This document shows, piece by piece, positions 57,598 through 64,000 of a DNA stretch of 64,000 nt. Within the stretch, counting starts at the first letter, position 1, and each line of letters opens with the position of its first letter. The notes under the pieces are model-generated. The model did no database searches. It was not told where the DNA came from and saw nothing but the letters and a program-made list of their open reading frames with translations. Location of the stretch: positions 1-64,000 of the IMG/VR virus record IMGVR_UViG_3300017969_000006; one strand, 5' to 3'. This DNA comes from a virus. The position numbers were made by a program, and so were the translations under genes.

Positions 57598-58902
57598 TTA
57601 TACGACGATAGCAACTCTTTTTCGCTGTGGCAACCCCAAACCTGTTAAATGTGTGAACGCCCCCACAGCAGAGTCGACTTGGTCATCATGTGGCGCGGCC
57701 TCCGGGAACGCCGATAACTCATCAAGCCATTCTGTTAACCATGGGGCGCGTACACATCTGACGTTGCCGTTGGCAACAGCAGCAGCAAATGGCCGTGCGC
57801 GCGTAACCTTGTCTCCAGTCGAACGGATTCCAGCAAAATCATAGCCAGACAGCACATATCGAGCATACTGATCGACAAGGGCCTTCCCTGATGAACCCGG
57901 CTCTTGCTCCATGCGAATCGCAACATGCCTTCCGTCTTCGTACGCCGTTTGAGCGATCAGTTGTTCAACCTTCTCGCCCTTGACCCTTGCTTTCTTTACA
58001 TCAAGGATGTATGCGATGCCCTGATCGAACAGCATCAACGTACCCACAGTCCAGTCAGGGTCCGGGTTGGACTGTGATGGTTCGGTGGCAGCCAAGTCCC
58101 AGAATCGAACAGCCCGGGCAGCAGATGAAATCTCAGGAACCTCATGCTGATCGAGAAGAACAACATTTTCACGTTCAAAAAGACTGCCAAGCGTAGTTGA
58201 CCACCAATCACCTTCTTCGAGCCGGCGTCGCTCAACAGGGTCAAGCGCTTGAAGGGTCTGTCTGTAGGAAGCAGCGTCGATACCCGGGTTGTCCGTCAAC
58301 TTCGACGGAACGAAAATCCGGTTGTGTTCGAGACCTTCAACAATGAATCGTTGCCGCACCCAGTTGGGCGCCGGGTTGGAAGCAGCCCTCATCCGTAGTG
58401 GCACCTTGGACAGGGGGCCGTTTGCTGGACGACGCAAACGCGAGAACATGTAGCGGTAGTCCGATTCGCGAATCTCGGTGACCTCGTCCATTCCGATAAA
58501 TTGAAATTCAGCACCCTTATAACGCAAATAGTCCTGCTGATTGTTCAAATACCCGAAAGATATGCGTGCGCCAGACGGGAAAACTGCCGTGTAGTTATTG
58601 GCGTTCCACCGAACGTCATCTTCGGCAGCAATCCAAGATTGGAAACGGTCCATGATTGCTCCGGGCAAAGCAAGGTCAGCGTAGGTGCGCCTAAACAGGA
58701 TTGCGCTATACCCGGGCACATCGACATATTGAAGTGCCGACATCAAAAGGGCCGAACTTTTACCGCCACCGGCCGCTCCGCCAAACAGGGCCTCGAGAGC
58801 GTACGTACGCAAAAAGACCTTTTGCGTCAACGATGCGGACTCTGGACAGTACAGCGCTTCCTTCGGCTGCAAATAATCTAAAACCTTTTGCCAATCTTCC
58901 AC
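57598..58902 (-). CDS. terL: Terminase large subunit
   Basis: Walker A GGAAGGGKS, Walker B FIGMDE, ASNP, RFWDLA, EQEPGSSG, HDDQVD. Confidence 0.95.
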   Translation of the reverse strand: MEDWQKVLDYLQPKEALYCPESASLTQKVFLRTYALEALFGGAAGGGKSSALLMSALQYVDVPGYSAILFRRTYADLALPGAIMDRFQSWIAAEDDVRWNANNYTAVFPSGARISFGYLNNQQDYLRYKGAEFQFIGMDEVTEIRESDYRYMFSRLRRPANGPLSKVPLRMRAASNPAPNWVRQRFIVEGLEHNRIFVPSKLTDNPGIDAASYRQTLQALDPVERRRLEEGDWWSTTLGSLFERENVVLLDQHEVPEISSAARAVRFWDLAATEPSQSNPDPDWTVGTLMLFDQGIAYILDVKKARVKGEKVEQLIAQTAYEDGRHVAIRMEQEPGSSGKALVDQYARYVLSGYDFAGIRSTGDKVTRARPFAAAVANGNVRCVRAPWLTEWLDELSAFPEAAPHDDQVDSAVGAFTHLTGLGLPQRKRVAIVV

Positions 58903-59160: not shown

Positions 59161-61146
59161 ATGGCATGGAACTCCTTTGAAAAGAAGTCACTCAACAACA
59201 TTGAGTCGAAAGCCGCACGGGTGTCGGTCGGTGCGCCCATTGCCAACAACCCCAGTTACGCCGGAAAAGGTTACCGAGACCCTTGGGACATTGAACGTGC
59301 GTACAAAGAGGGGATGCAGAAAGTTGTCTGGGTATCGCGATGCATCGACGCGATTGCCGGCAACCAAGCGCGACTACCAGTAATTCTTCGGCAAAACAAT
59401 GATCCCGAAGGAAAGATCGTTACCAAAAAGAATCTTGGAAACGGCAGCATTCTCGACATCCTGAACACGAAGGCGAACGAAGGCGAAAACTCCTTCATCT
59501 TCCGTTACAGGCTTTCCGCCCAACTTCTGATGAGCACACGAGGTGCTTTCATTGAGAAGATTAGGGGGCGCGATGGTCGAATTATCGGGCTGAACTTGCT
59601 TCCCCCTCAGTACACGTCACCAATTCCTGACCCGAGGCGCTTCGTTGCTGGCTATGAAGTGCTCATGCCTAACGGCGAGAAAATCATCATGAAGCCAGAT
59701 GATGTCATTTGGATTCGCCGTCCGCACCCCATTGACCCATACCTGTCGATGACTCCAATGGAATCAGCAGGTATCGCGATCGAAATCGAAAACCTTGCGA
59801 AACTTTATAACCGCAACTATCTCATCAACGATGGCCGACCGGGTGGTCTCCTTGTTCTCAAGGGAGAAATCGACGAGGATGATAAAGATGAACTACGTAA
59901 TCGTTTCCGAGGAAATCTTGGACGCACCGGCGCAACAACGGTAATCGCCGCTGATGATGGTGTTGACTACGTCGACACCTCGTCGAGCCCCCGCGATGCT
60001 GCTTACATTCAGATGCGGCAAATCACGAAAGAAGAGATTCTCGCCTCCTTCGGCGTGCCTGAATCGGTCATCGGTAATGCTGCGGGTCGAACATTCTCGA
60101 ATGCTGCCGAGGAAATCCGAGTTTTCTGGATTGAGACGATGATGCCTCACTTGGAGCATCTTGCTCGAGGGCTGGACGAAGCAGACGAGAAGCATTATGT
60201 CGACTTCGACACCTCTGAAGTTCCGATCCTTGTGATTTACAAGCAGGAGCGGGAAAGATACCTGCTCGATGAACTCCAGCAAGGTCTCATCACCCCAAAT
60301 GAATACCGCGAGGCAACCGGTCGGAAAAAGGTGGAATCAGAACTTGCCGATTCCATGTTGATGAATCCCAACCTCACGCCTGTCGGAAACACAGAAAAAC
60401 CGATGCCCGGGCCAGAAGCGCAAATGGGTGGAGGGGCCCCCGGAATGCCGGGAGCGATGCCGGGAGCGATGCCCGGACAACCGGGAGAAACGCCAGCGGC
60501 AATGCCGCCGCAGCAGCCGGGCGCCGCACCGCTTGATCCAAACACCATGCAGGGCGCTATGGCGGCTGAGCAGGCTCCGATGGAAACAACTAACGTTGAG
60601 CCACCGGAAGGACAGTTGGCGGATCCGGCGTTCGGTAATGTGAATACCAAATCTGACATAGATGCCGATCTTGAGCGTTGGACTCAAATCCTTGAGCGGT
60701 CACTTGAAAGGCTTGTTGAGCGACAGCAGCGAGTTGTGCTTGAAAAAGTAAGTGGTCAGAAAGCGCGAAAAGCACTTGCCGAGGGAACAATCGATCCGGA
60801 CAGCGTAATGCCATTAGACGTCTGGACGAAGCAGTTGGAAGAAGACATTCTTCCTGTCTTGAACTCAATTATGAAGGACGGGCAGGGTTTTGATGTGAAG
60901 TCGGAAAATAACGACGACATGGTTGTTCATGCCAACGCTGCACTCAGTCGCATTAAAACTGTGGTTTCTGATACCCGCACGTTTTTGGATATTGAGATCA
61001 ATAAGTGTATGGCCATTCCAGACGGTGAATTGCGCCTGAAAGTGCTTCGTTCTGCGCTTACAGGGCATTTTGCCTATCTGATGGGCAAGAAGGTTAACGA
61101 GATTGCGACCGCAGAGGCTCGCAGGGCTTGGAAATTGGCCAAGTAG
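59161..61146 (+). CDS. Portal protein (HK97 family) with C-terminal extension
   Basis: WV.RCIDAIA...ARLP, NDGRPGG, EILASFGVP, TFSNA, ITPNEYRE. Confidence 0.93.
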   Translation: MAWNSFEKKSLNNIESKAARVSVGAPIANNPSYAGKGYRDPWDIERAYKEGMQKVVWVSRCIDAIAGNQARLPVILRQNNDPEGKIVTKKNLGNGSILDILNTKANEGENSFIFRYRLSAQLLMSTRGAFIEKIRGRDGRIIGLNLLPPQYTSPIPDPRRFVAGYEVLMPNGEKIIMKPDDVIWIRRPHPIDPYLSMTPMESAGIAIEIENLAKLYNRNYLINDGRPGGLLVLKGEIDEDDKDELRNRFRGNLGRTGATTVIAADDGVDYVDTSSSPRDAAYIQMRQITKEEILASFGVPESVIGNAAGRTFSNAAEEIRVFWIETMMPHLEHLARGLDEADEKHYVDFDTSEVPILVIYKQERERYLLDELQQGLITPNEYREATGRKKVESELADSMLMNPNLTPVGNTEKPMPGPEAQMGGGAPGMPGAMPGAMPGQPGETPAAMPPQQPGAAPLDPNTMQGAMAAEQAPMETTNVEPPEGQLADPAFGNVNTKSDIDADLERWTQILERSLERLVERQQRVVLEKVSGQKARKALAEGTIDPDSVMPLDVWTKQLEEDILPVLNSIMKDGQGFDVKSENNDDMVVHANAALSRIKTVVSDTRTFLDIEINKCMAIPDGELRLKVLRSALTGHFAYLMGKKVNEIATAEARRAWKLAK

Positions 61147-61238: not shown

Positions 61239-62939
61239 GTGTCGAAGGAGCGAAAAATGCCCACTAACGAACTTACCGATCTCGAAATCAAAGCAGCGCC
61301 AGCCGGCCAGATGACCGTAAATCAGGCAAAAGGCATCGTCGAGGCTTTCGTTGCAGGAATTGGCAACAAAGACTCTGTGGGCGATATTTGCGCCTCGGGA
61401 GCGTTCAACGCGAGCCTTAAGCGCCGCAAGCCACGCGTGGTGTGGGGACACAACTGGAATGACCCAATCGGTAAAGTGCTTGAAATCTATGAGGTTCCGG
61501 CTACCGACCCCCGCCTTCCGGAAAAGATGAAACGTGCCGGAATCGGTGGACTTTACGCAAAAGTTCAGTTCAACCTCAACAGTGAAAAAGGACGCGAAGC
61601 GTTCGCAAATGTCCAATTTTTCGGTTTAGAGCAAGAATGGTCAATCGGATACAAAACGCTCGACGCCATTTTCGATCCCGCCAAGCAAGCGAATGTTCTC
61701 AAAGAAGTCGAACTTTACGAAGTCAGCCCAGTTCTTCATGGCGCAAACCAGTTGACGGGAACAATTTCCGTAAAAGCAGCGAAGCAGAAACTGCGCGACC
61801 CCAAGGGTGGGCTGACCGCCGCTGGGCGACGTCACTTCAACCAGACCGAAGGATCGAACCTCAAGCCGGGCGTTAAAGGTCCTGCTGATACGCCGCAAAA
61901 AATGCGTCGGAAAGGCTCGTTTCTGACTCGCTTCTTCACAAACCCATCCGGGCCAATGAAAAAGCCGGACGGCAAGCCGACTCGCCTCGCACTTTCAGCG
62001 GCTGCATGGGGCGAACCAGTTCCACAAAACCGCAGTGACGCAGCCAAACTCGCCGCAAAAGGACGTCGACTCCTTGAACGCTACGAGAATGCGAAGAAAA
62101 AAGATGCTGATTGGGACGAGGAGCAAATCGACTATACGGTCTTTGAGAACTTCTTCGCCGAGGATAACCCCGAGTTCAAAACGCTCGAAACTGACGAGGG
62201 ATTCTCTATTAACGATATTGAAATCGACGAGGTCGACGAAAAGGGCCACTACATGATGCGTATGGTTCCACGCAGAGCCCCAGAAAGCCCCCGCCGTGAC
62301 ATTTTCGCAGAAGGCGAAGCGCAATCCCTCAATGCGGAGAAGCGAAACGCCCTTGAAATGGAAATTGCTTCACGAACCCAGATGCCGATCAAACTCATTG
62401 AGGCGACGGAAAACTTGGCTGTCTTTGCTAAGAGTAAGCCAGATGGTACTAAGAAGTTTTACCGCCTTCCATACCACTGGGACACTGAAACCCAGCAATA
62501 CATGTTTGGCAAGCCAGAGCGCGTCGAGCCAGCGATGATGTGGCGCCCACGGAAGCCACGCGTCGTCGTCCCATCACAAATGCCGTCAATGCCGGTTGAA
62601 GTAAAGCCTCAAGGTGAAGGGCGAGGCGAGTACAACAACCCTGTAACCGTGAAGTTTGAAGAAGATGAGAAAAGCGCAATCGATCAAATGATGGAGTGGC
62701 TTGATGAATCTGAAGATGTCGAAATGAAGGAAGATGCTGTTCGCTTCATCATCGAATGCGACATGGAAGATGCCTTCAACGTGAAATCTGCATTCGACCC
62801 AATCTTCGATTACTACAAAGTTGACGTCGAAGTTACTGAAGATGGAATTGAAGTTCTGTCAGAGGCTTCTGACGACTTCTTGAATGCCATTGCGGTTGCT
62901 TCCAAATCGATCTTCGGGGAGACCGAAAAAAAAGTCTGA
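61239..62939 (+). CDS. Prohead protease (HK97 family) with extra domains
   Basis: GNKDSVGDI..GAF, VWGHNW.DPIGK, EWSIGY, LYEVSPVLHGAN. Confidence 0.92.
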   Translation: MSKERKMPTNELTDLEIKAAPAGQMTVNQAKGIVEAFVAGIGNKDSVGDICASGAFNASLKRRKPRVVWGHNWNDPIGKVLEIYEVPATDPRLPEKMKRAGIGGLYAKVQFNLNSEKGREAFANVQFFGLEQEWSIGYKTLDAIFDPAKQANVLKEVELYEVSPVLHGANQLTGTISVKAAKQKLRDPKGGLTAAGRRHFNQTEGSNLKPGVKGPADTPQKMRRKGSFLTRFFTNPSGPMKKPDGKPTRLALSAAAWGEPVPQNRSDAAKLAAKGRRLLERYENAKKKDADWDEEQIDYTVFENFFAEDNPEFKTLETDEGFSINDIEIDEVDEKGHYMMRMVPRRAPESPRRDIFAEGEAQSLNAEKRNALEMEIASRTQMPIKLIEATENLAVFAKSKPDGTKKFYRLPYHWDTETQQYMFGKPERVEPAMMWRPRKPRVVVPSQMPSMPVEVKPQGEGRGEYNNPVTVKFEEDEKSAIDQMMEWLDESEDVEMKEDAVRFIIECDMEDAFNVKSAFDPIFDYYKVDVEVTEDGIEVLSEASDDFLNAIAVASKSIFGETEKKV

Positions 62940-62965
62940 GGGGTCGCGCTCAAAGTTTCGACCCC
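62916..62965 (+). other. -1 programmed ribosomal frameshift signal
   Basis: GGGGAG, then A_AAA_AAA (62927-62933), 6-nt spacer, hairpin GGGGTCG/CGACCCC. Confidence 0.75.
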
Positions 62966-64000
62966 AACGCTGTAGATGGTGACGAGGACGGTCTCGTTCA
63001 GGAGGGCACCCCCTTCGAGCGTCCAGCCACACCCAATGTCGCTCGCGCCCTTAGGAGCGCCACAAGTTCCGCCGGATTCGACGGGATGAAACGCGACGAT
63101 ATGGCGAAAATGCGTTCAGAAGAATTCAACGAGGCGGTACAGAAACAGTTCGAAAAAGCAAAGGAACTGAGGGCCGAACTGTACGAGAAATATCCAAAAC
63201 TGGATGCGATGCTTGCAGCGCAGCAGATTGCGACCGTCACTTCAGTTCGCACCGGTCAGGACATCCGTGAAGAAGATGTCATGGAAGAACTTCAAGATCT
63301 GCTGAAGATCGATAGCGACGAAATCGACGACCTAGCAGACATCATCGCCAGTACACGATTCAGCCAAGACCTCCTCGAAGCGGACGAAGCGCAAATGTCA
63401 ATTTCTCGCGCTCGAGATTTCGTTGAGGAAACAACTGAGGACATGGGGAACATCTCGCTCGCAATCACCGACATGGAAGAAGACGTAGAAACCGCTCTTG
63501 ACCGAATCAAGAAAGAACTTGACGGCATGGAGATTTCTACAGGGCAATTCAAAGATCTTGCTGAATCCGATGACCGTGCCGACGCAACCCGCAGGCTACT
63601 CACTGATTTGATTGACGACCGAGAAGAACTTGAGCAACAGATTCCTCAAATGGGCTACCTTCTTGAAGATTACGACGAGGTCAAGGAGATGCGCGATCAA
63701 CTCAAAGACCTCGTAGATGAACTCGAAGAACTTTCAAGTGGACCTGTTGAATCTAGGGAGCGGGGACGAGATCTGCTTAAGCAAGGTTTCCTGAACGCTG
63801 ACTCACTAAACACGGGGTACGACGAAGACAAGTTTCGTGAGATGCTTGGAAAGTTCCGCAAGACAAAGACTTACGAGCGTGCCACCGAAGGGATGACAAT
63901 CGTCCGCAAGCGCAGTATTCCAAAATCTGAACCCGTTGCTGACAGCGACGCCGCAAGGGACATTCATGGACTTGGAAAGCGCAGCATCATCAACATCCCG
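62933..64000 (+). CDS. Frameshift extension of prohead protease; large acidic head-associated protein, partial
   Basis: Open to window end: SLRGRAQSFDPNAVDGDEDGLVQEGTPFERPATPN...; first ATG only about 50 codons in. Confidence 0.75.

Follow-up and report, generated by a model that had tools for sequence, protein, structure and literature searches.

A predicted programmed −1 ribosomal frameshift at the end of a prohead protease gene in an uncultured salt-marsh phage and its relatives

Our analysis concerns the 3' end of a prohead protease gene in IMG/VR record IMGVR_UViG_3300017969_000006, a 99,771-bp contig with 50% G+C that derives from salt-marsh metagenomes and represents an uncultured phage. 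The stretch analyzed, referred to here as the window, comprises the first 64 kb (64,000 nucleotides [nt]) of this contig. The open reading frame (ORF) of the protease stops just after a run of eight A's (A8), where an overlapping −1 frame continues into a large protein that we call D. We predict that this site is a programmed −1 ribosomal frameshift that gives rise to both the protease and a protease-D fusion, a reading that we consider probable. The whole case is built on sequence comparison.

In the mechanism that we propose, ribosomes translating the protease gene would meet the slippery heptamer A_AAA_AAA with a hairpin positioned at the mRNA entrance. Most ribosomes would continue through GTC to the TGA stop codon and release a free protease of 566 amino acids (aa), and a fraction would slip back by one base to produce a fusion of approximately 1520 aa, consisting of the protease, the junction ...EKK-SLRG..., a conserved DxDxDG box, and the 958-aa D. 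The phages of a large environmental family would have inherited the signal from their ancestor, and a one-base loss from the A run in the lineage of the window would have swapped the product that depends on the slip. We infer that the slip is ribosomal, that both products are made, and that a later cut at K556/S557 frees tagged D in the prohead.

Frameshift signal and the overlapping −1 frame

Four sequence features of a frameshift cassette were found at the site: a heptamer in phase within the frame overlap, a structure 5-9 nt further on, a start-less and conserved downstream frame, and conservation beyond that of the protein. The protease ORF ends in GAA AAA AAA GTC TGA. The 0 and −1 frames overlap by 67 nt, and this overlap holds only one heptamer in X_XXY_YYZ phase with the upstream frame, namely A_AAA_AAA. 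The putative stimulatory hairpin begins 6 nt after the heptamer and is formed by the pairing of GGGGTCG (62940-62946) with CGACCCC (62959-62965). Its folding energy is −14.1 kcal/mol, with 9 of 200 shuffled sequences equally stable, and among windows of equal size from its own ORFs, 99.4% are less stable (percentile 0.6%). Only this local hairpin stands out; an 80-nt fold downstream of the site was no better than shuffles. Elsewhere in these genes, in-phase heptamers are found at 0.57% of codons and those of Lys type at 0.14%; chance alone would very rarely place one in the 22-codon overlap and, at the right distance from it, a hairpin ranking in the top 1%. The positions given in an initial annotation for the A8 run, the heptamer, a Shine-Dalgarno (SD)-like GGGGAG word, the 6-nt spacer, and the 7-bp stem were all exact when re-checked. 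A search of positions 62700-63200 against Rfam returned no family match, even at an E value of 10.

The −1 frame is open from 62873 to 65809, and the junction reads EKK-SLRGRAQSFDPNAVDGDEDGLVQEGTPFERP. The initial annotation had followed this frame for more than 350 codons to the window end; with the rest of the contig it extends for 958 codons after the slip. Its first ATG, GTG, or TTG is the ATG at 63086, with no SD sequence ahead of it. This is codon 52, as expected from the earlier estimate of a first ATG about 50 codons in and downstream of a DGDxDG motif. Comparison with relatives places the box FDPNAxDGDxDGxVQEGTPFxRPA, the best conserved part of D, in its first 36-47 residues, upstream of this Met. 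The codons of the box in the window differ from those of relatives in 2, 0, and 16 cases at codon positions 1, 2, and 3, respectively. Because these differences are almost all at third positions, the stretch of the −1 frame before the first Met is taken to evolve as protein and to be real coding sequence. Comparison across the family thus indicates protein-level constraint on the −1 segment and conservation of the signal itself.

Conservation of the signal and its two polarities among relatives

Relatives were collected by protein-guided scans of IMG/VR and metagenomes of the Joint Genome Institute (JGI), which gave 237 loci with a protease domain. The protease and the box are in one frame in 175 of the 237 loci, and these proteins end with the same C-terminal domain as D. 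Since most relatives have both parts in one ORF and their C-terminal ends are homologous, the fusion protein is taken as the ancestral product.

An in-phase X_XXY_YYZ heptamer lies 41-80 nt upstream of the box in 57 of 88 distinct junctions. G_GGA_AAA is the most common type (41 of the 57), followed by A_AAA_AAA (13), with single cases of G_GGA_AAG, C_CCA_AAA, and GGGCCCA, the last of which we take as a chance match. The first four types are preceded by 12 different codons (for Gly, Leu, Pro, Lys, Ser, Ala, Glu, or Arg), the third base of which is in every case identical to X. This match across 12 codons indicates selection on the nucleotide pattern and not on the peptide. Three other large ORFs of this genome contain the box and have no heptamer, so that the protein motif is excluded as the cause of the signal. 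A stop codon is reached in the −1 frame 1-12 codons after the slip in each of the 54 in-frame cases, and this stop is TAG in 43 of them. A GC-rich hairpin follows the heptamer by 3-7 nt and ranks in the top 5% of windows from the same ORF in 36 of 43 junctions. The sequences of the stems vary between clades. In two clades, the stem positions pair in 100% and 96% of cases, compared to 27-64% for slid controls, with compensatory changes at three of six pairs in the former clade and one of seven in the latter. The expectation in the initial annotation that homologous protease genes would share the slippery site and hairpin was thus borne out.

The same annotation had likened the layout of SD-like word, slippery heptamer, and hairpin to that of dnaX. 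The likeness holds for the heptamer and the hairpin; it fails for the spacing of the SD-like word, which in dnaX lies approximately 10-14 nt upstream of the heptamer. An SD-like word is present in 41 of 43 junctions, as GGUGG 3 nt before the heptamer in relatives and as GGGGAG at 5 nt in the window. At this place (window positions 62905-62926 and their homologues in 43 junctions), GGT accounts for 85 of 122 Gly codons (70%), compared to 423 of 1690 (25%) elsewhere in the same ORFs. From this codon bias, the upstream word is clearly selected.

The polarity of the layout differs between lineages. In most family members, the slip is predicted to lead to a stop codon and the short form of the protease, as in dnaX. 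In the lineage of the window and in one other, the slip would lead to the fusion. A sister phage, known from proteins only (49,476-nt contig), has a protease that is 84% identical to that of the window and ends one codon after KK, together with an intact, separate D that is 67% identical, is called from an internal Met, and has 904 called codons. The retention of this split layout despite such divergence suggests that it is long-lived. The other lineage of this polarity is represented by L065 and L070, from two metagenomes and another clade. Here A_AAA_AAA (A7) is followed by a 6-nt spacer, the hairpin GCGCCC-tcg-GGGCGC, and a 0-frame TAG; the −1 frame runs for 557 codons and has no start codon. 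In both reversed lineages, the break corresponds to one base missing from the A run, and the short products end at nearly the same residue under either polarity. A third arrangement is found in L165-L167 (IMG/VR), in which the protease ends in TAA and a separate gene for the D homologue starts 26 nt further on (near L167:5405-5431) at an ATG of its own, with the box approximately 50 residues in.

We speculate, only tentatively, that the site has two roles, as a toggle in evolution and as a device for dosing. If the signal shifts a large share of ribosomes, the gain or loss of a single base within the slippery run would swap the slip-dependent product at little cost, which would account for both polarities and the split-gene form among relatives. 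As a dosing device, the ratio of short to long product would set the number of protease molecules that enter the prohead tied to the tagged protein.

Two observations on individual relatives stand apart from these patterns. A clade without the main heptamer (L052, L059, L111, L130, L114, and L104) has an in-phase T_TTT_TTT or C_CCT_TTT approximately 100 nt upstream of the box, preceding a cleavage-like site (EQK/ALGR; here and below the slash marks a predicted cut). Most of its members have a −1 stop codon after 2-3 codons, and the upstream heptamer may serve as an alternative site for the shift. The protease match in one short contig of IMG/VR (L076:3899-3934) shifts frame mid-gene, which may be an error or another break.

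Alternative explanations of the frame break

The frame break at A8 is real. Thirteen DNA runs contain the DNA of the phage nearly whole and 10 metatranscriptome runs contain parts of it. We compared per-run Illumina contigs from two DNA runs (depth 13.4 and 11) and two metatranscriptome runs (7.1 and 3.4) with window positions 62500-63400. All four contigs, which are consensus sequences from which rare variants are dropped and two of which come from DNA runs that may be the assembly's own source, were identical to the window without gaps and read A8; the fourth (X15) spans only 62621-63017, junction included. A true run of nine A's (A9), misread or misassembled, would make the gene one continuous ORF, a possibility that the initial annotation had raised as fatal to the frameshift. 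Homopolymers are prone to such errors, and A9 would give back the frame EKK-SLR. Given A8 in independent assemblies of DNA and RNA from different samples, a protein cluster with the same protease end on 29 contigs, and a sister phage whose protease ends alike, we consider an error highly improbable. The break might also be a fixed, inactivating deletion of one base, by which the fusion was lost, leaving the protease alone and D either dead or translated without its box from Met52, Met57, or Met60. Compared with relatives, one base is indeed missing from an A run, and such runs are prone to mutation; the gene caller begins D at an internal Met in the window phage and the sister phage, and D is a separate gene in one clade. 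Such a loss is nevertheless unlikely, since D is open for 958 codons and the sister phage keeps its 904 called codons at only 67% identity. Moreover, the box that would go untranslated is intact and changes at third positions, the ATG at 63086 lacks an SD sequence, all other tagged proteins, and D in the split clade, retain the box internally, and the break falls exactly on the conserved frameshift signal.

Alternatively, the slip could be transcriptional, with RNA polymerase adding an A on A8 so that a share of mRNAs with A9 encodes the fusion in one frame. Thermus dnaX and some insertion sequence (IS) elements use A9 runs for transcriptional slippage; the A8 homopolymer is of borderline length, and A9 transcripts, if in the minority, would go unseen in consensus RNA contigs. 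However, the RNA contigs both have A8, L065 and L070 require the same shift on A7 only, and most family members have at this place G_GGA_AAA, in which there are just four A's, and a hairpin at the spacing of frameshift sites. This last point argues for slippage by the ribosome rather than the polymerase in the family as a whole, and we doubt that transcriptional slippage explains the site, although slippage of polymerase on A8 may add a little in the window phage. Two other routes into the −1 frame were considered and set aside. If the TGA were read as sense, the 0 frame would gain only 12 codons before a TAG and would never enter the conserved frame. Coupled restart at CTG 62936 or ATC 62906, the sole near-cognate codons before the box, was judged unlikely because L065 and L070 likewise lack an ATG, GTG, or TTG before the box.

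Several points weigh against a programmed ribosomal frameshift. A runs are indel hot spots, and a frame break here could also arise by mutation; the four consensus contigs cannot reveal A9 as a minor variant, whether in DNA or in RNA. In Escherichia coli, ribosomes slip less readily on A_AAA_AAA than on A_AAA_AAG, and the SD-like element is nearer to the heptamer than the stimulatory spacing of dnaX. The hairpins of the five closest in-frame relatives are weaker (percentiles 4.5-29%). Finally, D is an ordinary separate gene in L165-L167, so that fusion is not obligatory for D.

Predicted cleavage, related systems, and gene context

The initial annotation further proposed that a fixed fraction of the protease carries a large cargo into the prohead for later cleavage. 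Support for this proposal is limited to a K/[SA][IL] site and the DxDxDG box, which are shared with three other large proteins of the phage. D carries the box, as do ORFs of 829 and 1281 aa and a zeta-toxin-like kinase of 534 aa. K/[SA][IL] precedes the box in the three other ORFs, where it takes the form [EQ]K/A[LI]GR, and in the junctions of relatives; ASK/SIFG holds the equivalent place at the protease-D junction. In addition, K/S[IL] occurs three times in the N-terminal domain of the capsid protein, and it resembles K/SLG, the cleavage site of HK97. These patterns suggest that the protease could cut at K556/S557 and so free tagged D inside the prohead. The capsid gene (86166-87482) lies 23 kb downstream and encodes a PF05065 match with its own N-terminal domain of approximately 110-158 aa. 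A role for D as a scaffolding protein was set aside as unlikely because the capsid protein has this domain ahead of its PF05065 part.

The proposed signal resembles that of E. coli dnaX (tau/gamma; A_AAA_AAG) in its Lys-type heptamer, the GC-rich hairpin a few nucleotides downstream, the SD-like word upstream, and two products that share an N-terminus. Most relatives resemble dnaX gamma in addition, in that the shift meets a stop codon within 1-12 codons. In contrast to dnaX, the polarity in the window is reversed, with the shift leading to the long form, and the SD-like word is 3-5 nt upstream instead of approximately 10. The gene is also different, encoding a phage head protease polyprotein with no sequence relation to dnaX and no Rfam match. 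The window is comparable to OrfA-OrfB of IS3 and IS911 and to retroviral Gag-Pro-Pol, in which the 0 frame stops, a start-less −1 frame is made only as a fusion, and a fixed share of the product is extended. Unlike in those systems, the enzyme comes first and is followed by the cargo, and homologues of opposite polarity or with an unbroken frame coexist. The proposed recoding in the late structural module, at a fixed ratio of two forms, is a feature shared with lambda gpG/gpGT (G_GGA_AAG), T7 10A/10B, and capsid or tail proteins of Lactobacillus phage A2 and Listeria phage, and the G_GGA_AAA of relatives is nearly the lambda G/GT heptamer.

Prohead protease is not among the gene classes listed for known phage frameshifts (PMC10885494), and our literature search found no published frameshift in a prohead protease gene. 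Thus, the signal is a textbook one, and its context in a prohead protease gene is absent from the literature that we searched. Lambda C/Nu3, P2 gpO, and gp27 (1633 aa) of the Gordonia phage DalanDe are likewise cases in which a prohead protease is part of a larger assembly protein and is later self-freed; those proteins rely on an internal start or on one uninterrupted frame, and a slip has been reported for none of them. DalanDe is also the nearest cultured relative (L163, ON755184.1 22424-27325), with a 1633-aa capsid maturation protease whose protease domain is 41.6% identical. This domain is near the C-terminal end, and the gene is directly upstream of the capsid gene, which is the opposite domain order. 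Among GenBank phages, no relative of D was found, and the protease domain alone was matched, at 42% identity or less.

A canonical frameshift signal is conserved across this large family of uncultured phages, which measure 40-170 kb and come from lakes, seas, and marshes. With its shift-to-stop, shift-to-fuse, and separate-gene forms, the family is a natural series in which to study how recoding sites arise and flip and how the copy number of head-packed proteins is set. Gene callers split the gene, start D at an internal Met, and lose its most conserved motif, and the annotation of the window phage and its sister would therefore be wrong at this locus.

The features of the locus are listed in Table 1. 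The protease ORF encodes 566 aa if started at its GTG, or 560 aa if started at the ATG at 61257. It matches Peptidase_S78 (PF04586) with 47 bits compared to a curated cut-off of 21 bits, DUF6321 with 99.6 bits, and PHROG 80 (head maturation protease) with an E value of 9e-32. H71 and S135, the candidate catalytic residues, are invariant in the protease alignment (A1). In the AlphaFold model, the two tail domains are separated by a disordered linker and both have a predicted local distance difference test (pLDDT) score above 90. The first, at residues ~362-434 (62322-62540), has a helix-on-sheet fold that resembles cystatins and NTF2/VirB8-like folds, and the second, at residues 501-561, is beta-alpha-beta-beta-alpha. 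The match of the first domain to cystatins is weak (VIA Z 7.7, root-mean-square deviation 2.7, 71 aligned residues), and the modeled similarity is too weak to suggest a protease-inhibitor role.

Table 1. Features of the protease-D locus and its surroundings (window positions)
Feature	Position	Strand	Basis or remark
Large terminase gene	57598-58902	minus	
Portal gene	59161-61146		
0-frame ORF, short product (prohead protease)	61239-62939	+	Pfam and PHROG matches
Peptidase_S78 domain (HK97-type prohead serine protease), residues 29-176	61323-61766	+	Pfam
DUF6321 domain, residues 186-257	61794-62009	+	Pfam; many relatives lack it
Two small folded domains in protease tail, residues ~362-434 and 501-561	62322-62921	+	AlphaFold model
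Putative maturation cleavage site K556/S557 (ASK/SIFG)	62904-62909	+	Predicted from the K/[SA][IL] pattern
SD-like GGGGAG	62916-62921	+	5 nt upstream of heptamer
Slippery heptamer A_AAA_AAA	62927-62933	+	Sequence; within A8 run 62926-62933
−1-frame ORF (D)	62933-64000	+	958 codons after slip; continues to genome position 65809
0-frame stop codon TGA	62937-62939	+	Inside 6-nt spacer GTCTGA (62934-62939)
Putative stimulatory hairpin	62940-62965	+	7-bp GC stem; 12-nt loop containing a 3-bp mini-stem
DxDxDG box (FDPNAVDGDEDGLVQEGTPFERPATP)	62957-63034	+	Relatives; best conserved part of D, upstream of first Met

D is the first of a series of large ORFs (958, 520, 2342, 829, 651, 1281, and 534 aa) that fill a 23-kb block between the protease and capsid genes (62933-86014). 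D and the three large ORFs after it had no match in Pfam or PHROGs, and the 534-aa ORF contains a Zeta_toxin/AAA_33 domain. A search of genomes for the host returned two contigs of metagenome-assembled genomes (MAGs) only and no usable host. One of the family members, L240, is on a 28.6-kb contig of a Phycisphaerae MAG (JASLZV010000001.1), which may be a hint of the host or a binning artefact.

The ESM Atlas gave a poor model of its own for D (pLDDT 0.43) and no usable match. The C-terminal 160 aa of D (L001:5327-5806) form a conserved folded domain with a duplicated strand-helix-helix unit in a model with a pLDDT of 82.5, for which nothing was found at an E value of 0.001 in PDB or BFVD. This end domain always has G[LMF][RA]S before it, and similar words (GGMRS and GLRS) inside D may be further cleavage sites.

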